Assembly (NCBI GenBank): GCA_016124955.1
Contig: WGMR01000008.1
Location: 18,004-82,003 of the forward strand
Direction: 5' to 3'
Source of the DNA: Alphaproteobacteria bacterium
GTDB taxonomy: Bacteria; Pseudomonadota; Alphaproteobacteria; UBA9219; RFNS01
Length of the DNA: 64,000 bases
Shown here piece by piece: positions 3,322 to 64,000 of the stretch. Each line of letters starts with the position of its first letter. Within the stretch, counting starts at the first letter, position 1. Below the pieces are notes generated by a model. It was not told the origin of the DNA. It was given only the letters and a program-made list of their open reading frames with translations, and did no database searches. The position numbers and the translations under genes are program-made.

Positions 3322-4754
3322 AAAAGCCCCCGCAATCTTACGTAATCAATTTTGCCCTGTCCGGTCAGCGGCAGCGAAGGCAGGTATTTCAGCTTTATGC
3401 TCTGCGAAGGCAGTTGCATGCGTTCCTGCAATACCTGCTCAAGCTGTTTTTGCACGCTCTGGTCGCGCTGATCGGTGGCGATGACAATATGATCGCCGCA
3501 ATCCATCGCCGCGCAGGGCGTAACGGAACGGCCAATCGCCTCAACCTCATCCAGCATCACGCGCAAACCGTGGATCTTTGCCATGCGCTGCTTGCGCCCG
3601 GTGATGGTGAGAAAGCCTTCCTCGTCCAGCACGCCGTAATCGCCGGTGATCAGTGTGGTGCGCATGTCGTCGCCGCGCGAAAGATCGGCGCGGTCGTCGG
3701 CATAGCCGAACATCACGTTCGGCCCGCGATACACAACCTCGCCCTCCGTGCCCGGCGGGCAGGGATAGCCATCCTTGCTGATGACCTCAAGCGTGCCCCC
3801 TTCAAGCGCTTGCCCGACCGTGCCGGATTTGCGCGCAAAATCTTCAAAACGCAGCGTGGTCATGCGCGGTGATGCCTCGGTTTGCCCGTACATCACGACA
3901 AGCTTGCCGCCGCGCGTGCCAAGCTTGTCGGCGAAATCCTGCAGCAATCCGGCGTCGGCCTTGCCGCCCGCCTGCAGCCAGGTGTTGAGCGTCGGCGCGT
4001 GCAACCGCGCAAGCCCAAGCCGCTGCACCATGGTAAAATGCGAAGGCACGCCGGCAAACAGCGTGCATTGCCGGTTTTGCACCAGTTTCCAGAAATCGTT
4101 TTGCACAACGCTCGCTTCGGTCAGCACGACGCTGCCGCCGCAGGCAAGCAGCGTGTGCAGAACGGAAAGCCCGAAGGAATAGGAAAGCGGCAAATGCAGC
4201 ACCGCCCGTTGTGCCGGGTCCAGCGCAAGCGCGTCAATAACCGCGGCGATATTATGCGCGAGGTTGCGGTAAGCAAGCCGCACGAATTTCTTGCTTCCCG
4301 TGCTGCCTGATGTCGAAAGCAGCAAAAATAATTGCGGGTTGATCCCGGCCGTATCGTGCTTGTCCGCTTCATAAATCTGCATGCCGTCGGCCCCCGCTTG
4401 CAGCCGGCGCAGCCCGGTCGGGTTTGCGAGCGGCGCGGGCGCCACGATCCAGTCGGGCCGGTAAGCCTTGCGCAGGCTGCTAAGCGTGCTTTCCTCGCAA
4501 TCGTGATCGAGCATCATGATTGCGTGCCCGGCGGCGGCAATCGCGAGATAGGCGACCGCGCACGCCGCGCTGTTACGCGCGAGCAGGAAAACCAGATGTT
4601 TGTGATCGCCGGCAAAGGTTTTGGCCATTTCGGCTACGCGTTCGCGTAGCGCGCCGTAGCTGATCCAGTCCTGCAAACTCTGATCGAATAGAGCGGGGGC
4701 GTCGTCCGGCGCGTCGGGCGCAATCAGGTCTTGCGGAAGATCGAGCGCGCGCAT
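3318..4754 (-). CDS. AMP-dependent synthetase/ligase (fatty acid or acyl-CoA/ACP ligase)
   Basis: 478 aa. Carries the AMP-binding motifs LSTSGSTGSKK and YGQTE. Confidence 0.8.
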   Translation of the reverse strand: MRALDLPQDLIAPDAPDDAPALFDQSLQDWISYGALRERVAEMAKTFAGDHKHLVFLLARNSAACAVAYLAIAAAGHAIMMLDHDCEESTLSSLRKAYRPDWIVAPAPLANPTGLRRLQAGADGMQIYEADKHDTAGINPQLFLLLSTSGSTGSKKFVRLAYRNLAHNIAAVIDALALDPAQRAVLHLPLSYSFGLSVLHTLLACGGSVVLTEASVVQNDFWKLVQNRQCTLFAGVPSHFTMVQRLGLARLHAPTLNTWLQAGGKADAGLLQDFADKLGTRGGKLVVMYGQTEASPRMTTLRFEDFARKSGTVGQALEGGTLEVISKDGYPCPPGTEGEVVYRGPNVMFGYADDRADLSRGDDMRTTLITGDYGVLDEEGFLTITGRKQRMAKIHGLRVMLDEVEAIGRSVTPCAAMDCGDHIVIATDQRDQSVQKQLEQVLQERMQLPSQSIKLKYLPSLPLTGQGKIDYVRLRGLL

Positions 4755-5444: not shown

Positions 5445-5643
5445 GGGCTTGATCCTAAAGACATTGTGCTGCCGGTCAATTTAACGCTTTTCTGCTCTTA
5501 TCAAGTTATATCAATAAGATACAATTTATCCCCAGTGCAAGAAACCCTGAATTCGCGCGGATTGCGCCCCATTCTTGCCATAAGCTGACCCTAACTTTTT
5601 GATGTAAGACGGCACACGCCGTCACAACTGCTCGGAGGAAGAT

Positions 5644-6171
5644 ATGCGCAGCAGGCTTTTCTCGAACTTCGCTTTAACCGCCGCGGTGATCGCGCTTGCG
5701 ATGCCGCTGGCCGCAGCCCCCGCCCATGCGGGCAAGGATACCGCCGGCCTGTTGCTTGGCGCCGGGCTTGGCGGCCTGCTCGGCAACCAGTTCGGTCACG
5801 GTACCGGCAAGGTGATCGCGACCAGCGTCGGCGTGTTCGCGGGCGGCCTGGTAGGCAGCTCGGTCGGCCGTTCGCTCGATCGTGCAGACCATACCTATTA
5901 CAGGGGCCAAACCACCAGCTACTACGCGCCGCAGCGCCACCGTGCGCATTACCGGCCCAACTATGTGGCCCCGGCCTATCACACGACACAAGTGATATAC
6001 GTGCCGCAACCGCAACCGGTCTATGTGCAGCAAGGCTATGTTTCGCCCACATCCTCCAATGGCAGCTATTGCCGCGAATACACCAGCAGCGTGCAGATCG
6101 GCAACCAGTTGCGCGAAAGCTACGGCACCGCCTGCATGCAGCCCGACGGCAGCTGGCAGATAAATGACTAG
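5644..6171 (+). CDS. Secreted/outer-membrane lipoprotein with a glycine-zipper (17-kDa surface antigen-like) domain
   Basis: Signal peptide, then GLLLGAGLGGLLGNQFGHGTGKVIATSVGVFAGGLVGSSVG glycine-zipper, then a Y/Q/P-rich C-terminus. Confidence 0.55.
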   Translation: MRSRLFSNFALTAAVIALAMPLAAAPAHAGKDTAGLLLGAGLGGLLGNQFGHGTGKVIATSVGVFAGGLVGSSVGRSLDRADHTYYRGQTTSYYAPQRHRAHYRPNYVAPAYHTTQVIYVPQPQPVYVQQGYVSPTSSNGSYCREYTSSVQIGNQLRESYGTACMQPDGSWQIND

Positions 6172-6246
6172 ATAAGGTCAAATTTCCGCCACGAATCTGT
6201 GGTGGATTATAGGTCTCACGTGATTGAGCAGCGCGTGAGAGAGGCG

Positions 6247-6287
6247 CCCGGAACCGCTGGATGTAAGCGGTTCCGGGTTTTCTTTTG
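6247..6287 (+). terminator. Rho-independent terminator after the glycine-zipper lipoprotein gene
   Basis: Stem cccggaaccgc / gcggttccggg with a 9-nt loop, followed by tttcttttg. Confidence 0.55.
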
Positions 6288-6341
6288 CCCGCCGCCGCCG
6301 TAATAATGGCCTTCTTCCCCGCCGGGGAACAGGAAAGCGCC

Positions 6342-7379
6342 ATGACCGATCTGCTCACCAGTGATTTTGCCTTCGACCTGCCGCCCGAACTGATCGCGCC
6401 CGCGCCCGCGCGTCCGCGCGATGCCGCGCGGCTTTTGCACGTTACCCCCGCGGCGCTGGCCGATAGGCAGGTGCATGATTTGCCCGGCCTGCTGCGTGCG
6501 GGCGATCTGATGGTGTTCAACGATACGCGCGTGATCCCATCCCGCCTGATCGGGTGGCGCGGCGATGTGCGCGTGGAAACGCTTTTGCACAAACATGCGG
6601 GCGGGGGGCTCTGGCTGGCCTTTGCCCGGCCCGGCAAGCGCTTGCGCGCGGGCGACGACATAATCTTCGCCCCCGATATTCGTGCAAAAATTATGGAAAA
6701 GTGGGAAGGGGGCGAACTGGCGCTGGAATTTTCATGCAGCCATGCCGGTCTGCTCGCCTTCATGCAGGCGCATGGCCATATGCCGCTGCCGCCCTATATC
6801 AAACGCGCGGCTGGCGATACCGCGGAAGACCGCGCCGATTATCAAACCGTTTATGCCGCGCGTGACGGCGCGGTGGCCGCGCCCACGGCGGGGCTGCATT
6901 TTACGCCCGAACTGCTTGCCGCGCTTGATGCAAAGGGCATTGAGCGCATGCATGTGACGCTGCATGTCGGGGCGGGCACGTTCCTGCCGGTCAAGGCTGC
7001 GCGCATCGCCGATCATGTGATGCATGCCGAATGGGGGGAGGTAACGCCCGAAAATGCCGCAAGGCTTTTGCGCGCGAAGCAGGAAGGTCGCCGCATCGTT
7101 GCCGTCGGCACCACGGCGGCACGGCTGCTGGAAACCGCCGCGCGCGGCGGGGCCATTGCGCCGTTTGCGGGTGAAACCGATATATTTATTTATCCCGGTT
7201 TTGCCTTCAGGGCGGTCGATGCGCTGATGACCAATTTCCATTTGCCGGAATCCACGCTTTTCATGCTGGTGTCCGCTTTCGCGGGGCGGGATCGTATGCA
7301 AGCCGCCTACCGCCATGCTATAGAGCGTCGCTACCGTTTCTTTTCCTACGGCGATGCAACCTTGCTGGAACGCGCATGA
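6342..7379 (+). CDS. queA: S-adenosylmethionine:tRNA ribosyltransferase-isomerase
   Basis: QueA family. The likely start is the [12 protein letters not shown] at 6342 inside the longer ORF 6285..7379. It overlaps tgt by 4 nt. Confidence 0.9.
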
Positions 7380-8527
7380 GCACGCAATTCGATCTTCTGG
7401 CATATGATGGCGATGCGCGGCGCGGTCGCGTCACCACCGCGCATGGCAGTTTTGAAACGCCATGCTTCATGGCCACGGCCACGGCCGCGAGCGTAAAGGG
7501 CATGCACTGGCGCGATGTCGCTGCCGCCGGAGCCGAACTTGCCATCTGCAACACCTATCATCTGATGCTGCGTCCCGGGGCGGAACAGATCGCGGCGCTG
7601 GGCGGGCTGCACGCCTTCACCGGCTGGCAGGGCCCGATTTTGACGGATTCCGGCGGTTTTCAGGTGATGTCGCTGACGGGGTTGCGCAAGCTGACCGAAC
7701 AGGGCGTGGTCTTTCGCTCCCACGTCGATGGCACGCAATATAACCTGACGCCCGAACGCTCGATCGAAATCCAGCATTTGCTCGATAGCGATATCGCAAT
7801 GGCGTTCGATGAATGCACGCCGTTCCCGGCTGAACCGGATGTGGCGGCGCAATCCATGCGCATGTCGATGCGCTGGGCGCAGCGTTCGCGCGATGCCTTC
7901 AAGGCGCGCACAGGCTACGGCCTGTTCGGGATCGTGCAAGGCGGCGTGCACCCGCATCTGCGGCTTGAATCGGTCGAAGCGCTGCGCAAGATCGGTTTCG
8001 ATGGTTACGGTATCGGCGGCCTTGCCGTGGGCGAAGGGCAGGAAAGCATGTTCGCCATGCTTGATGTCACCAAAGCGGTGCTCCCGGCCGGTAAGCCGCG
8101 CTATCTCATGGGGGTCGGGCGGCCCGATGATATGGTCGGTGCCGTGGCGCGTGGGGTCGATATGTTCGATTGCGTAATCCCCACGCGTTCGGGCCGTACC
8201 GGGCAAGGTTTTACAAGCCGCGGCGTGTTGAACATTCGCAACGCCCGTCATGCGGCCGATAAACGTCCGCTCGATGAAAATTGCGGCTGCCCGGCCTGCG
8301 CGAACCACAGCCGCGCCTATCTGCACCACCTGTTCCGGGCCGATGAGATGCTGGGTCCGATGCTGCTAAGCTGGCACAACATGCATTACTATCAAGATTT
8401 GATGCGCGGCATCCGGGCCGCCATTGAAGCCGGCGCCTTCGCCGCCTTCGCCGAAGCCTTTTATGCCGGCTATACGCGCGGCGATATCGATCCGCCGGAA
8501 AAGGCCGGCAAACCCGCCGCCGGATAG
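7376..8527 (+). CDS. tgt: Queuine tRNA-ribosyltransferase
   Basis: 383 aa. Tgt family with the Zn-binding CxCxxC...H motif (CGCPACANH). The queA-tgt adjacency is canonical. Confidence 0.9.
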
Positions 8528-48387: not shown

Positions 48388-49338
48388 TCAAGCGGCGGTG
48401 GTCGTGCGCGGCTCGGCCTTGGTCAGCTTCATCGGCAGACGGAAATGGACGCTTTCTTCCTTGCCGGGCAGCAGCGAGATTTCCACGGCCTCGATCTGGC
48501 GTAGCCGCTCGATCAATCCCTGTACAAGGTCTTCGGGGGCCGAAGCGCCGGCGGTGATACCCACAACCTTTTTGCCCGCCAGCCATGCCGGGTCCAGCTT
48601 GCTGGCGTCTTCGATCAGATAGGCGTCCACGCCTTCTTCGCGCGCGCATTCTTCAAGCCGGCTGGAATTCGAGCTGTTGCGCGCGCCAATCACCAGCACA
48701 ACATCCACATGCTTGGCCAGTTCGCGCACCGCTTCCTGGCGGTTCTGCGTGGCGTAGCAAATATCCTTGGTGGCCGGGCCGATGATGTTCGGGAAGCGCT
48801 TCTTCAGCGCTTCGATCATTTCCTTGGTGTCATCGAGCGAAAGCGTGGTTTGCGTAATATAAGCGAGCTTGTCCGGGTCGGCGACCTGCAGCGTTCCCAC
48901 ATCTTCCACTTCGGAAACCAGATGCACGCGGCCGGGCACGCGGCCGAGCGTGCCTTCCACTTCCGGGTGGCCGTCATGGCCGATCATGATGATTTCATAG
49001 CCTTGCTTGGCGTAGCGCTGGCCTTCCTTGTGCACCTTTTCCACGAGCGGGCAGGTAGCGTCGATGATATCGAGCCCGCGCTCGATCCCGTGCTTTTCAA
49101 CTTTTTCGGAAACGCCGTGGGCGGAAAAGATAGTGACGGCGCCTTCGGGGATCTGGTCGGTTTCCTCGACGAACACGGCGCCCTTGGCGCGCAGCCGTTC
49201 GACCACATGCGGGTTGTGCACGATTTCGTGCCGCACATAGACCGGGCGGCCGAATTTCTCCAGCGCCATCTCGACGATGGCGATTGCGCGCTCGACACCG
49301 GCGCAGAAACCGCGGGGCTGGGCCAGAACTACCTTCAT
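48388..49338 (-). CDS. ispH: 4-hydroxy-3-methylbut-2-enyl diphosphate reductase
   Basis: 316 aa. IspH/LytB conserved Cys ligands (GFCAGV, ATCPLV). Confidence 0.9.
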   Translation of the reverse strand: MKVVLAQPRGFCAGVERAIAIVEMALEKFGRPVYVRHEIVHNPHVVERLRAKGAVFVEETDQIPEGAVTIFSAHGVSEKVEKHGIERGLDIIDATCPLVEKVHKEGQRYAKQGYEIIMIGHDGHPEVEGTLGRVPGRVHLVSEVEDVGTLQVADPDKLAYITQTTLSLDDTKEMIEALKKRFPNIIGPATKDICYATQNRQEAVRELAKHVDVVLVIGARNSSNSSRLEECAREEGVDAYLIEDASKLDPAWLAGKKVVGITAGASAPEDLVQGLIERLRQIEAVEISLLPGKEESVHFRLPMKLTKAEPRTTTAA

Positions 49339-52849: not shown

Positions 52850-53812
52850 ATGTCCGGTCTTCTCACTCCGAACCCCGTCTATAAGCCCTTCCGCTATCCG
52901 TGGGCCTATGAAGCATGGTTGAAGCAGCAGCAAATTCACTGGCTGCCGGAAGAAGTGCCGCTGGCGGACGATGTGAAAGATTGGCGCCACAAGCTCAACG
53001 CGGCCGAACGGAATTTGCTTAGCCAGATCTTCCGTTTTTTCACGCAAGCCGATGTGGAAGTGAACAACTGCTACATGAAGCATTACGCGCAGGTGTTCCA
53101 GCCGACCGAAGTCAAGATGATGCTTTCCGCCTTTTCGAACATGGAAACCATCCATATCGCGGCCTATTCGCATCTGCTCGATACCATCGGCATGCCCGAA
53201 GTCGAATATTCGGCCTTCCTCCGCTACAAGGAAATGAAGGACAAATACGATTACATGCAAGCCTTCAATGTCGAAAACCCGGTCGAGATTGCGCGCACGC
53301 TGGCCGTGTTCGGCGCCTTCACCGAAGGATTGCAACTGTTCGCTTCTTTCGCGATGCTGATGAACTTCCCGCGCTTCAACAAGATGAAGGGCATGGGTCA
53401 GATCGTCACGTGGTCGGTGCGCGATGAAAGCCTGCACACCGTTTCCGCCATTCGCCTGTTCCGCGCCTTCATCGATGAAAACAAATACATCTGGACCGAA
53501 GGTTTCCAGCGCGAACTGTACCTCGCCTGCGATACGATCGTGGACCACGAAGATGCCTTCATCGACCTGGCGTTCGAGCTGGGCGGCGTCGAAGGGCTGA
53601 CGGGCGACGACGTTAAGGCCTATATCCGCTACATCGCCGACAGGCGTTTGGGCCAACTCGGGCTGCAGCCGATCTATCGCGTGGCCAAGAACCCGCTGCC
53701 GTGGATGGATGAAATGCTGAACGGGGCGGAGCACGCGAACTTCTTCGAAGCCCGCGCCACCGAATATTCCCGCGCCGCTACGCAAGGCAGCTGGGAAGAG
53801 GCGTTCGAATAA
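52850..53812 (+). CDS. nrdB: Ribonucleoside-diphosphate reductase beta subunit (R2, ferritin-like)
   Basis: 320 aa. An E-x-x-H-x-x-x-Y motif (METIHIAAYSH) shows the radical tyrosine is present. A second E..H motif (RDESLHT) is also present. Confidence 0.9.
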   Translation: MSGLLTPNPVYKPFRYPWAYEAWLKQQQIHWLPEEVPLADDVKDWRHKLNAAERNLLSQIFRFFTQADVEVNNCYMKHYAQVFQPTEVKMMLSAFSNMETIHIAAYSHLLDTIGMPEVEYSAFLRYKEMKDKYDYMQAFNVENPVEIARTLAVFGAFTEGLQLFASFAMLMNFPRFNKMKGMGQIVTWSVRDESLHTVSAIRLFRAFIDENKYIWTEGFQRELYLACDTIVDHEDAFIDLAFELGGVEGLTGDDVKAYIRYIADRRLGQLGLQPIYRVAKNPLPWMDEMLNGAEHANFFEARATEYSRAATQGSWEEAFE

Positions 53813-54109
53813 GACATCCGAAGCCCCGCAAGTCGCCGGTCGGCGTTACTGCGGGTCGGTCGGGCTGGTTCCGCGGTTTTTAGCTACTTTGCTTTCGATG
53901 CTGCGCTGAGCGTCCGCTCTTTCTTGCGGGCTCAAGCCAATCGTTTCGCCTATGCGCCTGAAAAGCTCTATAAGCCAATGTGTTTCGTCGCTATCGCCGC
54001 GTTGCGCTTTCATATCCATGCTCCCCATATATATTCCGTTGAATGGGGGGCTGGATATCACAAGGCTATGCCATTTTCAAACGCTTGTTATGGTTAAGGC
54101 GTAAAACGC

Positions 54110-55243
54110 TTATTCCACCGCGACCAGCTTGCCGAACACGCCGTCCGCTTCGTCGGCCGGGCCGGCGGTGAAGTAAAGGTGGTTCTTTTCACCCAAATGC
54201 ACGCCGTTGCCGAACAGCATGGCCCATAACCCATCGATCATGATCGGCTTGCCATCCGGGCGGCGCAGGTAATCGATCTGCTTGCCGCTGTCCGGGTCGA
54301 ACGCGACGATGGTGCCGTCGCCGAAATTTCCGACCAGCAAATGCCCGCTATGCTTACCGAAGCCGTCCGGTGCGGCGGCGATGCCCCAGGGCGCATCGAG
54401 CTTGCCCGCGCCTTCAAGTGCGCGAATGAACTTCCCGTTGTAATCGAACGCGGCCACATAGCCTTTGCCTGCGCCCTTGGTTTCCTCGCCCGGCTCCTTC
54501 GAAAGCTCGGCATACACAATGTAAAGCGTGCCGTTCAGCGCCTGAATGTTAAAAGGCGCATAATTGGCGGGGATGGTCCCGGCGGGTACGGCAAAGGCTT
54601 CCTTGCCAAGCGTCATGGGCTTGAAAGCGCTATCGAACACATCGATGCGCTTGTTGCCGAAATCCGCGAGGTAAAGCCGGTTGTGGTCGAGCCCTTCGGA
54701 AATCGCCATGCCCTTGTATATCGCGCCCTTCTTGCTGTTATCGACCATGGTGATGGAGTTGACGGGGCGGATGAAGCTGCCGTCTTCCTTCTTGTTTTCG
54801 GTCCAGCCGACGATGGAGCCTTCCTCGGTGGCGAAGATAAACTTGCTCGGCCCCGTGATGCCGTCATGCGTCACGATAAATTCGTCGTCGCGGCCATTGA
54901 ACACGTCGCCCGTGGGGTGCGAAGGTTCGGTCTGCCCTGCGGGTGCGGCGATGTTGATGAAGGGCGTTTTATCCTGATGCAGCGCGACGCCGTTCACGTC
55001 GCCGATATACATGCTGTTGGTGCCGCTATCGGTGTTGTTGATCCAGAAATGGCCGCCAGCGCCGGCGGGGCGGATAGCAAGGCCCCACGCGTTGAGCATG
55101 CGCTCGTCGATCAATTGCGGTTCATAGATCTGCTTGTTCGCGACAAGGTTGATCAGCTTATAGCCTGCGGCCTGCGAAGGCGCGGCGGAAATGGCAAGGG
55201 CGACGCCGGCAAGAATAAGGGGGCGGATAATCATGAGTATCAC
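54110..55243 (-). CDS. Secreted beta-propeller protein (TIGR03118-like conserved hypothetical)
   Basis: 377 aa. Signal peptide plus repeated Gly/Asp-rich blades (FGNKRIDVFD, GNFGDGTIVAFD). Confidence 0.5.
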   Translation of the reverse strand: MILMIIRPLILAGVALAISAAPSQAAGYKLINLVANKQIYEPQLIDERMLNAWGLAIRPAGAGGHFWINNTDSGTNSMYIGDVNGVALHQDKTPFINIAAPAGQTEPSHPTGDVFNGRDDEFIVTHDGITGPSKFIFATEEGSIVGWTENKKEDGSFIRPVNSITMVDNSKKGAIYKGMAISEGLDHNRLYLADFGNKRIDVFDSAFKPMTLGKEAFAVPAGTIPANYAPFNIQALNGTLYIVYAELSKEPGEETKGAGKGYVAAFDYNGKFIRALEGAGKLDAPWGIAAAPDGFGKHSGHLLVGNFGDGTIVAFDPDSGKQIDYLRRPDGKPIMIDGLWAMLFGNGVHLGEKNHLYFTAGPADEADGVFGKLVAVE

Positions 55244-55335
55244 CTGTGTGGGCTGGAGGGGCTAAGCGAGTGCCCCCTCATAGCCTAGATGATAATAGGT
55301 ATCAATAGCAATTTTAAACTATTGTTATAAATAGA

Positions 55336-56595
55336 CTAACTGGCCCATCTTGTTAGAACCTGCGCCGCTTTCAGGCCGCTGCGGATCGAGCCTTCGATGG
55401 TGGAAGGCAGGCTGGTATCGGTCCAGTCGCCGGCGAGCACGAGGTTTTTCCACTGTGTCCATGCGCGCGGGCGGCGCTTCACCTGTTCGGGCGTGGCGGC
55501 GAAGGTCGCGCGTTTTTCTTTCACGATCCGGTGCGGCGGGATTGTATCGGGGTCGAGCCCGTAAAGCTTCGCCACATCAGCCCAGATCATTGCGGCGCAG
55601 GTGGAAGCGGGCAGATCGACATAACGTTCGGCCGCACTCACGGTCACCGAAACCACGCCCGGCTTGGCGAAAATCCATTCCGCTACGCCGCCGATGATGC
55701 CGCAAAACCCGGCCTGCGTGCGCGGCACATCGATGCGGTAATGCGCGTTGACGATCGCGCGGAAATCGTTCGGCACCGTAAGCGCGGGCACCAGTTCGCC
55801 CGTTACCCATGCCGGTGTCGCCAGCACGACCCAATCCTTCGGGCCCATCTTCAGCGTCGCGCCGCCGAAATTCAGCCCGTTCACGCGTTCGGCATCCATC
55901 TCGACCGCGCGCAGCCGCTGCCCCAGATGCACGGAAACCTTCATCGCCTGCAGCTTTTTCAAACACGGATCGACGAATGTTTCGGAAAGCCCGATTTTGG
56001 GAATGCGCGGCATGCAAGCCTTGCCGCCCGCGCCGAAGGTTTGCGCGAACACGTTGGTCATCAGCTTCGCGGCGGCGTTGGCGGGTTCCGTGTTCAGCAC
56101 CGCGACCGTCAATGGCTCCCAGAAACGTTTATACAGCGTGCCATAGCCGCCCAGCAGCCCTTCGATCGTGTCGTCGTCGCGCGCGGTGAACAGCTTGACG
56201 ATCGAGGCGTAGTCGGCCGTTCTGGTTTCCGGCACGCGATGGCGGGGGGAGAAAATCCACCACGGCACCATGCCCTTGTTCATGCGCACGACCCATCGCC
56301 CGCCATGCGCGACGTCGGCGAACGGGAAAACCGGCTCGTCCGGTCCCGCCAGCGTATCTTCGGCGCCGGTGAAAAACAGATAATCCATCATCACCATGTT
56401 GCCGGAAAGCACGAGATGGTTGCCGTTATCGATCCGGCAACCGAGCTCGCGATCGAAATAGGAACGGCAGCGCCCGCCCGCCAACAGGCTGGCTTCATAA
56501 AGCGAAACCCTGAAGCCGCTCATGGCCAGGTGCAGTGCGGTAGAGAGCCCGGCCAGACCGGCGCCAACGACGTGAATATGATGTTCTTTATGCAT
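55336..56595 (-). CDS. hpnE: Hydroxysqualene dehydroxylase (FAD amine-oxidase family)
   Basis: 419 aa. N-terminal FAD motif VVGAGLAGLSTAL. Positioned after hpnC-hpnD. Confidence 0.85.
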   Translation of the reverse strand: MHKEHHIHVVGAGLAGLSTALHLAMSGFRVSLYEASLLAGGRCRSYFDRELGCRIDNGNHLVLSGNMVMMDYLFFTGAEDTLAGPDEPVFPFADVAHGGRWVVRMNKGMVPWWIFSPRHRVPETRTADYASIVKLFTARDDDTIEGLLGGYGTLYKRFWEPLTVAVLNTEPANAAAKLMTNVFAQTFGAGGKACMPRIPKIGLSETFVDPCLKKLQAMKVSVHLGQRLRAVEMDAERVNGLNFGGATLKMGPKDWVVLATPAWVTGELVPALTVPNDFRAIVNAHYRIDVPRTQAGFCGIIGGVAEWIFAKPGVVSVTVSAAERYVDLPASTCAAMIWADVAKLYGLDPDTIPPHRIVKEKRATFAATPEQVKRRPRAWTQWKNLVLAGDWTDTSLPSTIEGSIRSGLKAAQVLTRWAS

Positions 56596-56610
56596 GCGGG
56601 CGTTTTTAAA

Positions 56611-57471
56611 CTATAGGCTCGAAAGCGCCAGCCAAATTTTCCGCCACAGCGGCAATTCCACGCGTTTGCGGGTTTCCTGCCAATCCTGTTCGATCAGGCG
56701 GTCAAGGATGGCACGGTAATAGGCGCCCATGATGCGCGCGGGGCGCATGGCGCGCCGGTCGCATTGCCGCATGGCGTCGCGCGCCTCGCGGAAATGACCG
56801 AGTGCGACTTCGGCAAGGTCGCGGCACACGCGCGGCAAATCCACATGCGCCAGCACCATGCGCGGGGTCGCATCGGCCATGCCGTGTTTATACAAAAGTT
56901 CGTGCGGCAAATACAGCCTGCCGCGCCGCGCATCTTCGTTCAGATCGCGCAAAATGTTGGTAAGCTGCAGCGCGCGCCCCAAATGGTGCGCAACCCGCAT
57001 CGCCTGTGCGCTGCTGTCGCCGAAAATCCGGACCGAAGCGCGCCCGACCGCGCTCGCAACCCGGTCGCAATAGGTATCGAGCTTGGCCATGCTCGGTTTG
57101 CAGATGGGTGCGCCCGCATCCATCTCCATGCCGTCGATGATCGCCTGAAAATCCTCCTCCGCCAGCCCGTAGGCGGCGACGGCGGGTTGCAGCGCCTGCG
57201 TGATCGCGTCTTCGGCCGTGTTTTCCCGGAACAGGCGCGCGATGCGCGTGCGCCAGAGCGCGAGCCCGGCGCGGCGCGCCTGCTCGTTCGGGCCGTCGTC
57301 CGCGATATCGTCCACCTCGCGGCAAAATCCATACAAGGCATACATGGCGTCGCGCCGCGCGCGGGGCAGCGCCATCATGCCGGCGGTAAAGGATGAGCGC
57401 GATGCGCGCACGCGCGCCCGCATCGCCGCTGCGGGGTTGTTTATGTTTATTGCCGCCGCCGTCATAGCCAT
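56611..57471 (-). CDS. hpnD: Presqualene diphosphate synthase
   Basis: 286 aa. Squalene/phytoene-synthase fold with Asp-rich motifs (FCREVDDIADD). Confidence 0.85.
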   Translation of the reverse strand: MAMTAAAININNPAAAMRARVRASRSSFTAGMMALPRARRDAMYALYGFCREVDDIADDGPNEQARRAGLALWRTRIARLFRENTAEDAITQALQPAVAAYGLAEEDFQAIIDGMEMDAGAPICKPSMAKLDTYCDRVASAVGRASVRIFGDSSAQAMRVAHHLGRALQLTNILRDLNEDARRGRLYLPHELLYKHGMADATPRMVLAHVDLPRVCRDLAEVALGHFREARDAMRQCDRRAMRPARIMGAYYRAILDRLIEQDWQETRKRVELPLWRKIWLALSSL

Positions 57472-58340
57472 GCCGTCAGCAAACCGCGCAGCGCCGCCAA
57501 GGCGGCGGCGGGCTTGCCCAGCTTTACGTTATCCGCCAGCGGGTCGCGGCGCGCCAGAAGCTTCACAAGATCGTCCGCCAGCACGCAGATGATCGAAGTT
57601 TCGATCCGCAACCGCATGTCGCCGGCCTGGCGCGGCAGCATGCGCGCCTGTTTCAGCATCGGGCCGAGCAGGCCGAGCATATCGTCGAACGTGGCGCGCA
57701 GCGCAGCGCTCGATTGTTCGGCGGCAATATCGCCGATTGCCGCCCCGCGGGCCGCCAGCATATCCTGCGGAATATAAACGCGGTCGAGCGCGGCGTAATC
57801 CTTGGTGCAATCCTGCATGTGGTTGATGATCTGCAGCGTGCTGCAAAGCGCGTCGTTGGCGGGCCATGCTTCTTCGCCGGTGCCGTGCAGCGCCAGCACA
57901 AAGCGCCCGACCGGTGCGGCGGAATAGCGGCAATAATCGACCAGATCGTCCCAATCCTTGTAGCGCAACTTGATGGCGTCGCGGCGGAAGGCGGTCAGGA
58001 GATCGAGGCAATGCTGCGGTGTGATGCCGGTTTCGCGCAGACTTTCGCGCATGTGCACGGCCGAAGGCACATCGTCGCCCGCATCCGCCTTGTCGCACAG
58101 CACGGCGGCGAAGCGATCAAGGCGCGAAATTTTTTCCTTGGCTTCCAGCATCGGGTTATCCGCCACATCGTCCGATGCGCGGGCGAAGCCGTAAAAGGCG
58201 TGCACGTGGCGGCGGGCATCGGGGCGGATCAGCCAGGATCCGACAGGAAAGTTTTCATCGCCCGCGCCCTTGCCGCTCGGCGTTTCGGTCGCGCGCGGCG
58301 CGTCCGGCGCATGCGCCGTCATGTCTCTTGCCGGTTCCAT
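57462..58340 (-). CDS. hpnC: Hydroxysqualene synthase
   Basis: 292 aa. Squalene/phytoene-synthase fold (YGFARASDDVADN). Confidence 0.85.
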   Translation of the reverse strand: MEPARDMTAHAPDAPRATETPSGKGAGDENFPVGSWLIRPDARRHVHAFYGFARASDDVADNPMLEAKEKISRLDRFAAVLCDKADAGDDVPSAVHMRESLRETGITPQHCLDLLTAFRRDAIKLRYKDWDDLVDYCRYSAAPVGRFVLALHGTGEEAWPANDALCSTLQIINHMQDCTKDYAALDRVYIPQDMLAARGAAIGDIAAEQSSAALRATFDDMLGLLGPMLKQARMLPRQAGDMRLRIETSIICVLADDLVKLLARRDPLADNVKLGKPAAALAALRGLLTAWL

Positions 58341-59483
58341 TTACCGGCGCGCCTCGGTGCGGCCCTTCCATTCGCCGCCCGCACCCGCCCATGTCAGGCG
58401 AGCGGAATCGCACGTCGCGCCGATATAAACTGCGCCCGCCGCGGGCAGCGCCAGCGTCCAGGCAGGCGGCAACCCGTAAAGCCGGATCATCGGCAGATAG
58501 GTGAAGGCCATCGCCGCGATGGCCAGCAACGCGAACAGCTTGCCCCAAAGCCCTGCGAACAAAATCGCCGCCAGCGGCGCGATGAACAAAATCGCCATCC
58601 CGAGCACGCAAGCGAGCAAAAGAAAGACCGAATGTTTAAGCTGTGTGAAGGCGGTGCGCGCGATCATTTGCCAGATCGGGCCGGTTTCGCCGTATGCGCG
58701 TACGCTTTCCGTATCGTTGCTCAGCGCCAGCAATGTGCGTGCATACGCGCCGGGCAGGCTTTTGTGCTTGATCAGTTTCGCCAGTTCACAATCGTCGATC
58801 AGCGCGCGGCGGATCGCGATCAAGCCTTCGACCTTGTCAAGCGCGCTCTTGCGCACCAGCATCACGCCGCCCGCCGCCGCGGCGATCGCGCTATCGTGGT
58901 CGTTCGCGAGCCGGAAGGGATACAGCATCTGGAAAAAATATACGAAAGCGGGGATCAGGATTTTTTCCGCCCGGCTGGCGCAATGCAGCTTGACCATCAG
59001 CGAAACAAGATCGGCGCTTTGCGTTTCCGCCTGCGTCACAAGGCGGCGGATATTATGTGCTGGGTGCCTGATATCGGCATCGGTGAACAACACAAAATCG
59101 CTGTCGGCGTGTTCCTGCCCTGCCTGCATGGCGCTGACCTTGCCGGTCCAGCCATCCTTGGGTTCGGATGCCGCAATAACTTCAAGCCGCTTCGCGAGCC
59201 CGAGTTCGTTCGCGATCTTGCGCGCCACGTCCGCCGTGCCGTCGCTGCTGTGGTCGTCAAGCAAAAGCACGCGCCATGTGCCGGGGTAATCCTGCTGCAA
59301 AAGGGAAGGCAGCGTCTTGGGCAGTTCCTGTGCCTCGTCGCGCGCGGGCACGATCACGGTGACGGAAGGCCAGTAACCGCGCGGCGCGGTTTCCGGCAGG
59401 AAGAAGGGCTGCCAGAACCGGCGTCCGTGGAGAAATGTAAGGTATAGCCAGCCGATCAGGCTCAGGAGTGCGAGGGATGTCAT
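58341..59483 (-). CDS. hpnB: Hopanoid-associated family-2 glycosyltransferase
   Basis: 380 aa. GT2 motifs (VIVPARDE, LLDDHSSDGT, DAD) plus a C-terminal membrane domain. Confidence 0.8.
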   Translation of the reverse strand: MTSLALLSLIGWLYLTFLHGRRFWQPFFLPETAPRGYWPSVTVIVPARDEAQELPKTLPSLLQQDYPGTWRVLLLDDHSSDGTADVARKIANELGLAKRLEVIAASEPKDGWTGKVSAMQAGQEHADSDFVLFTDADIRHPAHNIRRLVTQAETQSADLVSLMVKLHCASRAEKILIPAFVYFFQMLYPFRLANDHDSAIAAAAGGVMLVRKSALDKVEGLIAIRRALIDDCELAKLIKHKSLPGAYARTLLALSNDTESVRAYGETGPIWQMIARTAFTQLKHSVFLLLACVLGMAILFIAPLAAILFAGLWGKLFALLAIAAMAFTYLPMIRLYGLPPAWTLALPAAGAVYIGATCDSARLTWAGAGGEWKGRTEARR

Positions 59484-59510
59484 CGGGCGTGCCAGTCGTT
59501 GGTTGCCGGG

Positions 59511-60548
59511 TCAGTAATTGTTTTGCTTGAACCAGTTTACGGCATCAAGGATGGCATCATACGCCGCGCGGGCGCGATAACCAAGCCGGCTTTCCGCCTT
59601 CTTGATGCTGAAAAACATCTTCTTTCTGGCCATATTCAGGCCATCAATGGTCACGAACGGGTCGCGGCCCGTGATGCGCGCGGCCAGCTCGGCCCCGAAG
59701 GCAATGGGGTAGATAAGCCCGCGCGGCAGCGCCAGCGTGGGCGGTTTGCGCCCGGTGATCTCGGCCACGTGGCGCAGAATATCGCGCAGCAGAAGATTCT
59801 CGCCGCCAAGAATGTATCGCTCGCCCACCTCGCCGCGGTCATAAGCCAGAACGTGGCCGATCGCGACATCGTCCACATGAACCACGTTCAAACCGGTATC
59901 GACGAAGGCGGGCATGCGGCCATGCATGGCCTCGACGATCATGCGCCCGGTCGGCGTCGGCTTGATATCGCGTGGGCCGATCGGGGCGGAAGGGTTGACG
60001 ATCACGGCGGGCAAGCCCTTTTCCGCGATCATCGCTTTCACCGTTTCCTCGGCCAGGAATTTGGATCGCTTGTAATGCCCGATCATGCCGCCAACATGCG
60101 AAGGCGTGGTTTCGTCAGCCGACGTGCCATCGGCGTTGCTGCCCAGCACGGCAACGGAACTGGTGTACACGATGCGCTTAACGCCCATCAAAAGCGCGGC
60201 GTTCATCAGCGCCTGCGTGCCTTCCACATTGGCCTGGTACATAGCGGCGGGGTTAGGCACCCAGATGCGGTAATCGGCGGCGATATGAAACAGCGCGTCG
60301 CATCCTGCCAGCGCGCGGGTCAGGGAATCGTGATCCAGCAGGTTGCCTTCCGCGATCTCGATATCAAGCCCCGCCAGGTTGCGCCTGTCGTTGTCCGGCC
60401 GGGTCAGGATCCGGACCCGGTGCCCTGCGGCCAGAAGCGCGCGCGTCACGGCCGCGCCGATGAAGCCGGTCGCGCCGGTCACAAGGGTTTGCTGCGGGAC
60501 GGTTTGCTGCGGCGGGGCTGGCTGGTTTGGGGTCTGCTCGGTTGTCAT
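59511..60548 (-). CDS. hpnA: Hopanoid-associated NAD-dependent sugar epimerase/dehydratase
   Basis: 345 aa. Rossmann GATGFIG and YxxxK (YKRSK) motifs. Confidence 0.85.
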   Translation of the reverse strand: MTTEQTPNQPAPPQQTVPQQTLVTGATGFIGAAVTRALLAAGHRVRILTRPDNDRRNLAGLDIEIAEGNLLDHDSLTRALAGCDALFHIAADYRIWVPNPAAMYQANVEGTQALMNAALLMGVKRIVYTSSVAVLGSNADGTSADETTPSHVGGMIGHYKRSKFLAEETVKAMIAEKGLPAVIVNPSAPIGPRDIKPTPTGRMIVEAMHGRMPAFVDTGLNVVHVDDVAIGHVLAYDRGEVGERYILGGENLLLRDILRHVAEITGRKPPTLALPRGLIYPIAFGAELAARITGRDPFVTIDGLNMARKKMFFSIKKAESRLGYRARAAYDAILDAVNWFKQNNY

Positions 60549-60975
60549 GGGGGCCGTTTATACCATCCTGAAACCGGTGGGCTATCGAGATTTAGGCCAC
60601 GTTGTAATTCTGCAACAAGGCGTGCCAGGCGGGCAGGGCGGCTGACAAAAAGAATCCGGATCAATGGCTTAGCCATGGGCTGTTTTTCGTGTCCCTGAAA
60701 CCGTTCCGGACCCGGTTCAAAAAACCATGCTTTTCCACACGAATATAAATCGCTTACCCATTGATTCAAATAATAAATACATTGCCATGGCAAAGATATC
60801 CACAGACAATAGCCAAAGCATCATTCTGCCACAAAAAACACCGGTAAATTAGGTTAACGAAATCTCAATCGGTGGGGTCTTAACTGATGAATTGGGCATC
60901 CAGCGTTTGGCTCAAAGCGCTTTGTCCGTCCGTGACTTACGGGTCATGCGGCTAGCTGTATTGGGGGATACAAAA

Positions 60976-62784
60976 GTGCTCGTTTCGCTTCGCCTGCCGA
61001 TGATACTCGCGCTCTGCGCGCTGGCCTCGCTTCTGGTGCTGCCCGCTTGCAGCCCGGTCGATGTGAAGGAAGCGCAAAGCAACTATTCGCGGCAACCGGA
61101 ATTACCCGAAGTTCCCGATCCTTCTGAAACCGTTCGCGGCGCAGACGATCCGCCGGTGGTGACGTTGAAGATCGGCAGCTCGCTGCGCGACCGTCGCCTT
61201 TCGTCCGGCGATGAATTACCCGAAGATGTCATCTTGCCCACCACCAATTTGCAGGGCGTGCCGGTTACGGCCGCGCTTGAAGCCGTGCTGGCCGGTACCG
61301 ATATCGCGCTTTCCTACGAAACCGCGGCCTTCGACGACCGCATCATCAACCTGCTGAACCTCAGCGGCCCGTTGCCGCAGGTCGTGGAACGTATCTGCAA
61401 CGCCGCGCGCGTGTTCTGCAACAACCGCAGCGGCAGCCTTGAACTGGTGGCGCAAGACACCTTCATCATCGAACTTCCGCCGGTCGAAGATGAAAACGCC
61501 GCCAGCAGCACGATCGCGGATGCGATCAAGCAGCTTTCCGGCGGCGATGTGCAGGTCGATACCGCCGGCGGCAATCTGATCTATTCCGCCGATTATGAAG
61601 GCTATCACCGCGTCAACCAGTATCTGTCGCAGCTGCGCAACGGCCGTCCCTTGATCGTGATGCAGATGTATATCTGGGAAGTTTCGCTCGATGCCAACAA
61701 CAATTCCGGCATCAGCTGGACCAGCTTCGACCAAAGCGGCCTCGGCGGCCACCTGCAATCCGTCGATAACATCACCTCCAGCCTGTCCAACTCCGCCATC
61801 TCGGCGATCACCGGCGGCATGAGCCTCGGTGCCGTGCTGCGCGGCAAGGTGGATGCCAACCTGGTGGCCAAGTTCCTCTCCACCCAGGGCGTGGTGCAGA
61901 CGGTCAGTAACCCGCAAATGACCTTCGTGTCCGGCTCCAGCGCCAACTTCGTGATCGGCGGTACGCGCCGCTTCATCTCGCAGGTCGGTCAGCTGGTATC
62001 GAACACCGTGTCCGGCTCCAGCACGGGCACCAGCGGCATCGGCACCAACACGGTATCGACCGACGATATCGATGTCGGGCTCACGATTGATGTGCGCGGC
62101 AGCTATGAAGGCGGCGTGATTTTCGCGAAAATGAGCCTCGCGACCACCGATATCATCAAGGTTGAATCGGTTGATACCGGCTCGACCCAGCTGCAGCTTC
62201 CCGAAACCAGCGAACGCAAGCTTGAAACCGTGCTGCGCGTCCGCCCGGGCGATAACCTTCTGCTTGCGGGCATGAACTCGTCGCGCGACGAACTGGGCCG
62301 CGACAATATTCCGCTCCCGCTGCTCGGCCGGCTCCCGCTCGGGACATCCGACATCAAGCAGAACCGCGAACTCGTGATCCTGCTCAAACCCTCGATCGTC
62401 CTGTTCGCGGACGACGAACAAATCGAACAGGCCCGCAAGGAAGAGCGCCGCCGCCCGCTGCCCGAACCGGTGGTGATCGACAGCGCCGGCACCCGCCCGA
62501 TCGTGTATGAAGAAAAGCCGCGCACGCTCAGCGATGCGGCCGACGAAGCGGCGGCTTATGCCACGCTTAGCTCCGAGACCGAAGCCGTACCCGGCGAAAC
62601 GCCAGTAACGGCGGCAATCGCCAGCGGCAATCAGCAGGTCCTGTTCGGCCAGGTTGGCGGCACGCCGGTGGGCGAACCGGGGCCGGATGTTTCGCTGGTC
62701 GATCGCGGCATGCTGCAGCGCGGGTTTTCCTACGCCTTCGATGAACTGCTGACCCCGTCGCAGGATGTGGAGGCGCAGCCATGA
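60976..62784 (+). CDS. Secretin-family outer-membrane lipoprotein (type IV pilus / T2SS-like secretin)
   Basis: A GTG at 60976 is preceded by a GGGGGA SD. Lipoprotein signal MLVSLRLPMILALCALASLLVLPAC. N0-like domain (LQGVPVTAALEAVLAGTDIALSY). C-terminal secretin domain (VVQTVSNPQMTFVSGSSANFVIGG ... LRVRPGDNLLLAGMNSSR ... ELVILLKPSIV). Confidence 0.75.
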   Translation: MLVSLRLPMILALCALASLLVLPACSPVDVKEAQSNYSRQPELPEVPDPSETVRGADDPPVVTLKIGSSLRDRRLSSGDELPEDVILPTTNLQGVPVTAALEAVLAGTDIALSYETAAFDDRIINLLNLSGPLPQVVERICNAARVFCNNRSGSLELVAQDTFIIELPPVEDENAASSTIADAIKQLSGGDVQVDTAGGNLIYSADYEGYHRVNQYLSQLRNGRPLIVMQMYIWEVSLDANNNSGISWTSFDQSGLGGHLQSVDNITSSLSNSAISAITGGMSLGAVLRGKVDANLVAKFLSTQGVVQTVSNPQMTFVSGSSANFVIGGTRRFISQVGQLVSNTVSGSSTGTSGIGTNTVSTDDIDVGLTIDVRGSYEGGVIFAKMSLATTDIIKVESVDTGSTQLQLPETSERKLETVLRVRPGDNLLLAGMNSSRDELGRDNIPLPLLGRLPLGTSDIKQNRELVILLKPSIVLFADDEQIEQARKEERRRPLPEPVVIDSAGTRPIVYEEKPRTLSDAADEAAAYATLSSETEAVPGETPVTAAIASGNQQVLFGQVGGTPVGEPGPDVSLVDRGMLQRGFSYAFDELLTPSQDVEAQP

Positions 62785-64000
62785 TAGGCCGCCGCCGCTC
62801 AGCTTTGCCGGTGGCCGCGGTTATGCTTCTGGCCGCGCTGTTGTTGCCGTCCGCGGCGTTCGCGCGCGATGCGTCGTTTATCGAGCCGGGCACATCGGTC
62901 GGCAAGGGCGCCACCAACGAAGCGCTGGTGGCCGAACCAAAAGAAGTGGATACGGGCGAATCCGTCGTCGGCGTGGCGCGCCGCATCACGCTGTTCTTTT
63001 CAAACCAAAGCAACACCGGGGTTACGATCCGTGACATGACGGTCAACGGCGATGGCAACGTCACGACCGAAATTACCAGTGACGATTGCAAAAAGGTCGG
63101 CAAAATCCCGGCCTTCACCCGCTGCGCCGTGGTCATGTCGATCACGCCATCAAGTCCGGGCCCGTGGACGGTGGAAATCCTTGTCACGCATGACGGGCTC
63201 GGGCGCATCGCGCGTGCGACCGTCAACGGCATGACGCTGGGCGAACGCAAGGAATCGCAGGAAAAAAAGATGGGCCTCGCGCTCAACAACCAAAAGACCG
63301 ATCCGATCGATTTCGGCGAAGTTGAAATCGGCGTCGGCAAGCCGGTGCGCTCGGCGCTGATCTATAACGATAGCAACGAAGACATCACTATCATTTCCAT
63401 CGATCTGATCGCGGCCAGCAACGGCCTCGCGCGCCTCAATCAGGGCTGCGAGGTCGATATGACCCTGCGTCCCGGCGAGTCATGCCCGATCACGCTGCAA
63501 TGGACCCCGTTCCGCCGCAACACGATATCGACCGATCTGATCGTGCGGCATAGCGGCCGTGTCGGTTTCATGGTCGTGCAGGTGCGCGGCAAGACCACGG
63601 GCGAAGCCATGGCGGGCGCTGAAGGCGAAGGCGCCGAAGGCAATATGACCCGGATACCGGGTTTACCGCCGCCGCCGCCCTCGGCGGCCGAGCTTGGCAA
63701 TCTTATGAACAATGTCCCGCCCGTAAACGCCGGCGCGCTTTCCGGCCCGCCGCCGATGGCTTCGCAATCCTCTTCCGCGCCCGTGCATGCCGATATCTAT
63801 CTTGTCGGCACGGTCGGCAAGCGCGCGATCCTGCAACGCGGCGGCGGCGCCACCAAAGTCGTTGCCGAAGGCAGCGAAGGCAATGTTGGCGGCGTTTCGG
63901 TCCGGGTTATCAGCGTAAACCCGCGCGCCGCATCGGTAGAAATGAACGGCGAGACGCATGAATTGAAGCTTGGCGGTTCGCCCTACCGTCCGAGCCAGAA
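62781..64000 (+). CDS. Secreted protein with two ASH/PapD-like beta-sandwich repeats, Pro-rich linker and a PilP/GspC-like C-terminal domain (truncated at window end)
   Basis: Not in the ORF track because it has no stop. I translated it myself from the ATG at 62781, which overlaps the secretin stop as ATGA. It has a signal peptide MIGRRRSALPVAAVMLLAALLLPSAAFA. Two repeats carry C...PG.SC/C...PGESC motifs. A PGLPPPPPS linker leads to LVGTVGKRAILQRGGGATKVV... Confidence 0.5.
   Translation, partial: MIGRRRSALPVAAVMLLAALLLPSAAFARDASFIEPGTSVGKGATNEALVAEPKEVDTGESVVGVARRITLFFSNQSNTGVTIRDMTVNGDGNVTTEITSDDCKKVGKIPAFTRCAVVMSITPSSPGPWTVEILVTHDGLGRIARATVNGMTLGERKESQEKKMGLALNNQKTDPIDFGEVEIGVGKPVRSALIYNDSNEDITIISIDLIAASNGLARLNQGCEVDMTLRPGESCPITLQWTPFRRNTISTDLIVRHSGRVGFMVVQVRGKTTGEAMAGAEGEGAEGNMTRIPGLPPPPPSAAELGNLMNNVPPVNAGALSGPPPMASQSSSAPVHADIYLVGTVGKRAILQRGGGATKVVAEGSEGNVGGVSVRVISVNPRAASVEMNGETHELKLGGSPYRPSQ

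Follow-up and report, generated by a model that had tools for sequence, protein, structure and literature searches.

The stretch analysed here (the window) comprises 64,000 nucleotides of an Alphaproteobacteria bacterium assembly (GCA_016124955.1, contig WGMR01000008.1, positions 18,004 to 82,003). At its right-hand edge lie two overlapping genes, one encoding a secretin of lipoprotein type and the other a secreted protein with two ASH-type beta-sandwich domains (referred to as the partner). These are the first two genes of a conserved, vertically inherited seven-gene operon, which continues beyond the window with genes for an ATPase, a platform protein, two membrane proteins of 351 and 191 amino acids (p351 and p191) and a pilin-like protein. 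All the functional statements made below are computational.

A seven-gene operon headed by a secretin gene

The window ends before the five downstream genes, and these were read on L003, a contig of 17.4 kb from an independent Logan assembly that matches window positions 53731-64000 (10.3 kb) without a mismatch and extends 7.1 kb further; the secretin encoded on it (P0001, translated from the GTG start) is 100% identical to that of the window. On L003 the gene for the 439-residue partner is followed by those for a 582-residue ATPase, a 409-residue platform protein, p351, p191 and, after a gap of 292 bp, a pilin-like protein of 214 residues, and then by cytochrome oxidase genes. The same proteins are deposited at NCBI as hypothetical (GC131_08040 and GC131_08065) in the metagenome-assembled genome (MAG) of an "Alphaproteobacteria bacterium", on a contig of 213 kb. 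In the first-pass annotation, made from the letters of the window alone, the gene pair was taken to start an operon; extension of the sequence in the 3' direction, with five more genes found on a contig identical to the window where they overlap (those for the ATPase, the platform, the orphan membrane proteins p351 and p191 and the pilin-like protein), bears this out.

The likely start of the secretin gene is GTG 60976, which is preceded by GGGGAT and lies exactly 427 bp from the start codon of hpnA (Table 1). The length first given for this gap is thus exact. Its description as downstream of hpnA had to be corrected, since hpnA is encoded on the opposite strand and the gap is therefore a divergent intergenic region. 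The GC content of this region is 0.46-0.50 vs about 0.62 in the flanks, and it holds two sigma-70-like matches where 0.4 would be expected (consensus matches only); no promoter motif common to the loci was found upstream of the secretin gene. The ATGA overlap between the two genes is real, and 22 of 25 related loci likewise show a 4-nt overlap at this junction.

Table 1. Coordinates of the features discussed, numbered from the first letter of the window; a vertical bar within a sequence marks the predicted cleavage site
Feature	Position	Strand	Remarks
TadE-like protein, N-terminus	1-165	minus	…ERGSTAVEFAFIAPVLF…; Pfam TadE 4.4e-8; runs off the left edge
hpnA	59511-60548	minus	Start codon at 60548
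Divergent hpnA/secretin intergenic region	60549-60975		AT-rich; presumed operon promoter region
Secretin gene	60976-62784	plus	602 amino acids from GTG 60976; alternative ATG 60946 (612-residue open reading frame)
Secretin signal peptide and lipobox LPA-C	60976-61050	plus	Cys25 at 61048-61050
Weak STN/N0-like match, N-terminal periplasmic region of secretin	61240-61311	plus	Pfam STN E 0.16
N3-like domain and secretin pore domain	61555-62400	plus	Pfam Secretin part 61876-62400
C-terminal tail of secretin, about 125 amino acids	62401-62781	plus	Low-complexity Pro/Ala/Glu-rich linker, then conserved terminal motif
ATGA overlap, secretin stop/partner start	62781-62784	plus	Translational coupling
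Partner gene	62781-64000	plus	Codons 1-406 of 439; runs off the window edge
Sec-type signal peptide of partner	62781-62864	plus	MIGRRRSALPVAAVMLLAALLLPSAAFA|RDASF; hydrophobic segment at residues 6-29
ASH-type beta-sandwich 1	62925-63239	plus	Invariant Cys pair; AlphaFold2 residues 39-143, pLDDT >90
ASH-type beta-sandwich 2 (C...PGESC)	63306-63599	plus	AlphaFold2 residues 166-263, pLDDT >90
Disordered Gly/Ala/Pro-rich linker	63600-63794	plus	AlphaFold2 pLDDT <60 except a short conserved helix, 292-299
Small 7-strand beta domain	63795-63968	plus	AlphaFold2 residues 329-386, pLDDT 91-97

Assignment of the first gene product as a secretin, on which the first-pass annotation depended, survived the profile searches. 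The Pfam Secretin model (PF00263) matches residues 311-485 of the 612-residue open reading frame at 60.1 bits (cutoff 27.5; E 2.6e-16). The best NCBIfam model is MshL, of which positions 3-290 match residues 204-485 with an E value of 1.3e-28 and 99.9 bits against a cutoff of 250.2, and the matches to GspD (1.5e-20) and to the type IVb PilN family (9e-13; 47.6 bits vs 287) are likewise below their cutoffs. Among solved structures in the PDB, the family profile placed the lipoprotein secretin BfpB on top (7.4e-15). The alignment of the protein with Escherichia coli GspD by hhalign covered N3 and the secretin domain (E 9.5e-6), and the N-terminal profile compared with the first 330 residues of the same GspD, for the N0 domain, gave no alignment. 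The N0-like domain named in the first-pass annotation is at most a putative one. At least 258 homologs were found at E<=1e-10, some of which carry the JGI labels CpaC or MshL. Regarding lipidation, the lipobox Cys is conserved and most of 120 homologs display the canonical L[LAVST]GC, LPAC of the window being an atypical variant, and hence the predicted lipoprotein nature of the secretin, as first proposed, is sound at the family level. The tail of the protein, which is unlike a known S-domain, ends in a motif with the family consensus D.RLMQRGFSHAFD.LL, with V575, Q581, G583, F584 and A587 nearly invariant in the family alignment.

The ATPase matches Pfam T2SSE at 3.8e-82 and contains Walker A, Walker B and His boxes as well as a CxxC...CxxC motif (CPAC...CDLC). 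GspE is its top NCBIfam model, and against the PDB it scored 207 bits with GspE/EpsE, 175-181 with PilB and PilF (PilB 181) and 86 with BfpD. The platform protein shows two T2SSF stretches (8.4e-15; GspF/PilC type). A single transmembrane segment is present in p351 (about residues 210-243, after a cytoplasmic domain of ~200 residues) and in p191 (about residues 50-73), topologies that are those of GspL/PilM-N and GspM/PilO, respectively. A weak match of p191 at window positions 48388-49338 was spurious, this region being LytB/IspH.

Conservation was examined in loci of a Micavibrio sp. MAG (45% identity), an alphaproteobacterial MAG (38%) and a JGI contig (69%), together with two long contigs and 37 metagenome loci retrieved in a search with the profile of the partner. 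The names of the sources are almost all those of uncultured Alphaproteobacteria or "Bdellovibrionales", where NCBI files Micavibrio. In every locus that was long enough (about 25; 38-69% identity) the genes follow one strict order, namely secretin, partner, ATPase, platform, p351, p191 and pilin-like, and the partner and ATPase genes overlap by 4 nt in 19 of 25. The base composition of the operon matches that of its flanks. The hopanoid genes upstream (window 53731-60548), encoding an HpnA-like epimerase, a glycosyltransferase, two members of the squalene/phytoene synthase family and an amine oxidase, recur in L004, L045 and L046, where the secretins are 45-69% identical, and cytochrome oxidase genes are located downstream in L003 (16205+) and L043; this synteny with unrelated pathways is long-lived. 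Based on the kept gene order, the flank-like composition and the recurring hopanoid and cytochrome oxidase neighbours, we read the locus as old, chromosomal and vertically inherited.

This conservation bears on the proposal that the operon is a decaying remnant without function. Such decay might be seen in the lack of a linked prepilin peptidase and in one distant locus, L039 (1-8300), in which secretin, partner, p351 and p191 are kept and the ATPase, platform and pilin-like genes are absent from the next 8 kb; L039 itself may be a degenerate or split variant. However, in about 25 loci, at identities as low as 38%, all seven reading frames are intact and each protein keeps dozens of invariant residues, the composition equals that of the flanks and the candidate copies of these genes in Micavibrio aeruginosavorus ARL-13 (see below) are transcribed, so that a remnant is scarcely credible.

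The partner with tandem ASH domains

The open reading frame of the partner starts at ATG 62781. Behind its signal peptide, the mature protein opens with a conserved RDA.F, of which R19 and F23 are invariant in the family alignment. The second beta-sandwich matches Pfam ASH (residues 173-259; E 3.8e-8; 33.9 bits vs a cutoff of 27), and the NCBIfam choice_anch_D model matches the protein below its cutoff (33.1 vs 45); in the L001 homolog a choice-of-anchor D model matches the first beta-sandwich. The two halves of ~100 residues align with each other (23% identity, E 6e-5) with their Cys pairs in register. The AlphaFold2 model has a mean predicted local distance difference test score (pLDDT) of 80, and Foldseek related it, with E values as low as 2.6e-12, to ASH-domain ciliary proteins, CEP192 SPD-2 and the immunoglobulin (Ig) domains of VesB and VesC. 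Thus, the Pfam match, the internal repeat and the structural model sustain the tandem of ASH-type beta-sandwiches and the Pro-rich linker described at first inspection; the pattern C...PGESC, then attributed to both repeats, is that of the second, and the first reads C...FTRC. No family model or paper was found for a partner of this kind, in agreement with the first-pass view that its tandem of ASH domains is unusual.

Among 75 full-length homologs many residues are invariant, including the two Cys pairs, and in the linker P289 is nearly so. In related loci the gene is always situated between those for the secretin and the ATPase, in one copy per operon. This position, and the 4-nt overlap that the gene shares with each of its neighbours in most loci, speak against the alternative that the secretin exports the ASH protein, as cargo or as a surface adhesin, and that this protein is not a part of the machine. 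Cargo of this kind would fit with the frequent occurrence of ASH and choice-of-anchor D domains among secreted and surface proteins, with the Ig folds of VesB and VesC, both type II secretion system (T2SS) substrates, among the structural matches and with a cleavable Sec signal in a protein that has no membrane anchor. Nevertheless, the single copy per operon, the many invariant residues and the GspC-like, sub-threshold C-terminal domain are those of a component, and it is the pilin-like gene of the locus that varies and occurs in several copies; this alternative was therefore considered quite improbable.

The small C-terminal beta domain was first thought to run past the window but is wholly contained in it, with just a disordered tail of 33 residues beyond. 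In 3 of 30 family members this domain is matched by positions 80-141 of the 141 of Pfam T2SSC (GspC), which we take to be the HR region, the best match being sub-threshold (5.4e-5; 23.5 bits vs a cutoff of 27). Foldseek of the whole partner yielded only Ig/ASH matches, which masks this small domain. A profile search of the PDB with the C-terminal domain gave no sequence match, a search with the whole-partner profile against PDB sequences gave nothing meaningful and an hhalign comparison of the C-terminal domain with GspC of E. coli K-12 was insignificant, having been made with a single-sequence template of low power.

Like PilP and GspC-HR, the partner has a small all-beta C-terminal domain after a long disordered linker, in the order linker then beta domain as in PilP, and its gene adjoins that of the secretin; unlike them, it is neither a lipoprotein (as PilP is) nor anchored in the membrane (as GspC is), and it carries two N-terminal ASH sandwiches. 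The likeness to PilP/GspC-HR is sub-threshold in sequence, and binding to the secretin would be by analogy. Altogether, the GspC-HR/PilP-like character of the domain has moderate support, and we infer that it is a putative secretin-binding module and the partner a putative connector from secretin to platform in the periplasm.

The pilin-like subunit and the type of machine

The N-terminus of the pilin-like protein is invariant in 52 aligned members, with a short basic leader and the sequence AG|IAIGPILF[IV][IV]A[IV]LGILAAAIAAGSGSF; C149 and C194, also invariant in these members, are situated within a variable C-terminal part. The leaders are of 10-25 residues with a variable residue at +1, a trait shared with type IVb pili, and the AlphaFold2 model consists of a long N-terminal helix and a beta domain (pLDDT 90). 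When aligned by hhalign, the Gly of the motif is in register with Gly(-1) of GspG, GspK and a canonical pilin, in alignments that are not statistically significant. Compared with GspG (RG|FTLLEIMVVIVIIGVLA), the hydrophobic core is in the same register and Pro occupies the Glu5 position (+5). The family has at least 1258 cluster representatives at E<=1e-3, in which the N-terminus is kept and the C-terminus is diverse. Among 149 newly listed top matches, 115 fit the strict pattern G-x-A-x-G-P, many of the remaining being N-terminally truncated fragments or close variants, and none of the 149 screened fits the canonical G[FMILV][TSA][LIM][ILVP]E. Tandem copies of the gene are present in L010 (two) and L045 (three). 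A conserved N-terminus with a diversified body and paralogs is the pattern expected of a surface-exposed fibre subunit.

A promoter-like sequence, TTGAC[TA]TTT, is conserved 100-250 nt upstream of the start of the pilin-like gene in 19 of 21 loci (L003 15004-15295), and GAATCA[AG]nTTGTTA recurs 25-35 nt further on in about 8 loci; the motif is absent upstream of the secretin gene. In two loci, L020 (7456-8028) and L034 (7393-7953), a gene for a canonical type IV pilin (RG|F[ST]LIEL…) is situated on the minus strand, divergently and just upstream of the secretin gene, and those genomes therefore also make standard prepilins.

An ATPase of the GspE/PilB family and a platform of the GspF/PilC family in one locus place the operon in the type IV filament superfamily. 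Based on this evidence, we give a probability of about 60% to the reading that the locus is a compact, non-canonical subtype of this superfamily that makes a surface pilus for attachment. A surface pilus for attachment to prey or host is favoured over a piston of T2SS type because of the diversity of the subunits, the occurrence of paralogs, the lack of minor pseudopilins and the affinities of the secretin to the lipoprotein secretins MshL and BfpB.

If the secretin is itself lipidated, it would insert into the outer membrane, needing for that reason no separate pilotin. Like GspC-HR and PilP, the C-terminal domain of the partner would dock on the periplasmic N-domain of the secretin; the ASH domains would form or decorate a ring in the periplasm, the ASH pair and the linker reaching the proteins of the inner membrane. 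In this model p351 and p191 would play the roles of GspL/PilM-N and GspM/PilO by clamping the ATPase to the platform. The leader of the pilin-like subunits would be cut after the Gly by a peptidase encoded elsewhere, and the ATPase would drive the cut subunits into a fibre passing through the secretin.

The strongest alternative to a surface pilus, though an unlikely one, is a minimal T2SS, in which the pilin-like protein would form a short periplasmic pseudopilus pushing folded exoproteins through the secretin and the ASH domains would replace the PDZ domain of GspC in the recruitment of substrates. It draws on the closeness of the ATPase to GspE, the sub-threshold T2SSC matches in relatives of the partner and a gene order that resembles D-(C)-E-F-...-L-M. 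In comparison with the Gsp/Xcp systems, GspE is the closest solved ATPase, the platform is of GspF type, two single-pass proteins are found in the places of GspL and GspM and the C-terminal domain of the partner resembles GspC HR in relatives. Conversely, the partner is a soluble protein with a cleaved Sec signal in which ASH domains stand instead of the transmembrane segment and PDZ domain of GspC, homology to GspL or GspM is not detectable, there is no GspG signature, GspH-K or GspO, and the subunit has Pro and not Glu at +5. No GspG-like reading frame was found in L003 or most loci, the non-canonical pilin-like gene or genes being the only candidates. Moreover, the subunit family is hugely diversified with tandem paralogs, whereas GspG is normally highly conserved, and the secretin resembles the lipoprotein secretins of pili more than GspD. 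A lipidated secretin is also known from the Hxc variant of the T2SS.

The same alternative leans on a cultivated predator. The T2SS of M. aeruginosavorus lacks GspC, G, H and K; it was nonetheless called functional, and most of it was reported to be up-regulated on attachment to prey (PMC3189940). Supplementary file 4 of that study lists a secretin (GMV_1937, 1785 bp), a hypothetical gene (GMV_1936, 1632 bp), a type II/IV ATPase (GMV_1935, 1842 bp) and four further hypotheticals (GMV_1934 to GMV_1931; 1221, 996, 531 and 738 bp), and a 507-bp "type IV leader peptidase" (GMV_1939) is located two genes from this cluster (PMC3189940). On attachment GMV_1931-1937 rise 1-5 fold, and expression is highest for the gene that ends the cluster, with values of 9.9 in attack phase and 53.8 on attachment (PMC3189940). 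GMV_1931-1937 of ARL-13 seems to be a copy of the operon, a candidate by the fit of gene lengths and annotations and not by sequence, which reduces its weight in favour of a T2SS. Should the match hold, the operon probably accounts for part of the "incomplete but functional T2SS" of M. aeruginosavorus, and the machine could be studied directly in a cultivable predator.

A second alternative is that the operon is a canonical MSHA, type IVb (BFP, R64 or TCP; BFP being the bundle-forming pilus and TCP the toxin-coregulated pilus) or Tad locus that looks odd at the edge of the window. Similarities to each of these systems exist. With MSHA the locus shares a lipoprotein secretin, for which MshL is the best NCBIfam model over N3 and the pore, an ATPase of the GspE/PilB/MshE type, a single two-domain platform and the lack of a retraction ATPase in the locus. 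With the type IVb systems of enteropathogenic E. coli (BFP) and R64 it shares BfpB as the best PDB match of the secretin and a compact run of secretin, accessory protein, ATPase and platform, which recalls the bfp gene order, bfpB-C-U-D-E. The JGI labels CpaC and MshL given to some secretin homologs point the same way.

The differences carry more weight. The NCBIfam scores are far below the cutoffs (MshL 99.9 vs 250). Unlike in MSHA, hpnA is located upstream instead of MshI/J/K, the ASH partner and not MshM/MshN is placed between secretin and ATPase, no T2SSE_N/MshEN domain was detected in the ATPase and canonical pilins of the MshA-D type are lacking; none of the genes for MshI/J/K, MshM/N or MshA-D was found in any locus examined (about 25). 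In contrast to type IVb systems, the ATPase is closer to GspE/PilB than to BfpD (207 vs 86 bits), the operon is devoid of peptidase, retraction ATPase and minor pilins, and the pilin lacks Glu5; genes for a retraction ATPase or minor pilins were not found in the loci. As to Tad/Flp, the ATPase is a 582-residue protein with CxxC motifs, of the long GspE/PilB type and not of the CpaF or BfpD type (the TadA-family model scored 46.7 bits in the L001 homolog), a single platform gene takes the place of the TadB/TadC pair, Flp is absent and the TadE-like fragment belongs to a separate locus 60 kb away. With the full gene content seen in about 25 loci, and MshI/J/K/M/N, an in-operon peptidase, canonical pilins and a TadB/C pair lacking from the operon, the locus fits none of the canonical T2SS, MSHA, type IVb and Tad types, and the idea that it only looks odd at the edge is very improbable. 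The first-pass annotation had left the type of machine to the downstream genes, and these do not form a canonical Tad, MSHA or T2SS locus.

Several observations weigh against the reading as a surface pilus. The fibre and its function are predicted here from genes alone, the ATPase is nearest to GspE and the published study treated the Gsp-type genes of M. aeruginosavorus as a T2SS (PMC3189940). Neither p351 nor p191 has a Pfam match or a sequence match in the PDB, and hhalign gave E 0.37 for p351 with E. coli GspL and E 0.0047 with 7% probability for p191 with GspM, in comparisons with single-sequence templates of low power; since no significant similarity was found, their roles are assigned from position and topology. 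The GspC/PilP-like C-terminus first proposed for the partner holds for the relatives with sub-threshold T2SSC matches, and the T2SSC model has no match in the window's own sequence; the N0 domain of the secretin is likewise a putative one. The pilin-like protein is without Glu5, no pilin model reached threshold on it (weak matches to GspK, PilA and GspH were obtained) and Foldseek of its model against the PDB gave nothing below E 1. Finally, neither the window nor the sequence up to 10 kb from about 25 loci (there even at E<50) gave a match to an A24 prepilin peptidase in a search with a single query, E. coli GspO, that could miss a small enzyme of the TadV type; the peptidase may be encoded elsewhere.

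Known classes of type IV filaments comprise type IVa (T4aP) and type IVb (T4bP) pili, Tad, MSHA, T2SS, Com and the archaeal filaments. Models of fibre assembly lean on Glu5 of the pilin, a residue normally needed for assembly, and on the alignment complex of GspL/M or PilM/N/O. It can be tentatively hypothesized, with odds somewhat below even, that the operon represents an undescribed, ancient class confined to Micavibrio-like and other uncultured Alphaproteobacteria, with a large pilin family in which Pro replaces the near-universal Glu5 (G|IAIGPILF; >1000 clusters) and with novel proteins that take over from GspC/PilP, GspL and GspM. Given Pro at Glu5 and these novel stand-ins, assembly, and possibly maturation, would be unlike those of the type IV pili and T2SS studied so far. 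The machine may serve epibiotic predation or host attachment. In the literature searched, the coverage of which was incomplete, no description was found of the AIGPILF motif, the ASH partner, the operon or the pili of Micavibrio/Micavibrionales.

In this widespread, strictly syntenic system only the secretin, the ATPase and the platform can be recognised. Provided that it works, the system shows with how few conserved parts a machine of this sort can do, and it provides a natural test of the dispensability of Glu5. In addition, the operon accounts for hundreds of "hypothetical" genes in alphaproteobacterial MAGs.

Other genes in the window and next to the cluster

The Tad-like fragment noticed at first inspection ~60 kb from the secretin gene is real by its Pfam TadE match (Table 1). 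Its location at the left edge means that a Tad/Flp pilus locus, possibly with its own peptidase, is probably present just beyond the window. In L039 and L045 (20320-21776), the cluster is followed by a gene for a response regulator with an EAL domain and one for a 7TMR-DISM hybrid histidine kinase, neighbours that hint at control by cyclic di-GMP.

On the minus strand of the window, three consecutive open reading frames (5594-8329; 390, 223 and 327 amino acids) are without a Pfam match even at E<=1, and positions 357-4754 encode a PglD-like hexapeptide acyltransferase, a LuxC-like acyl-CoA reductase, a LuxE-like acyl-protein synthetase and an AMP-binding enzyme.

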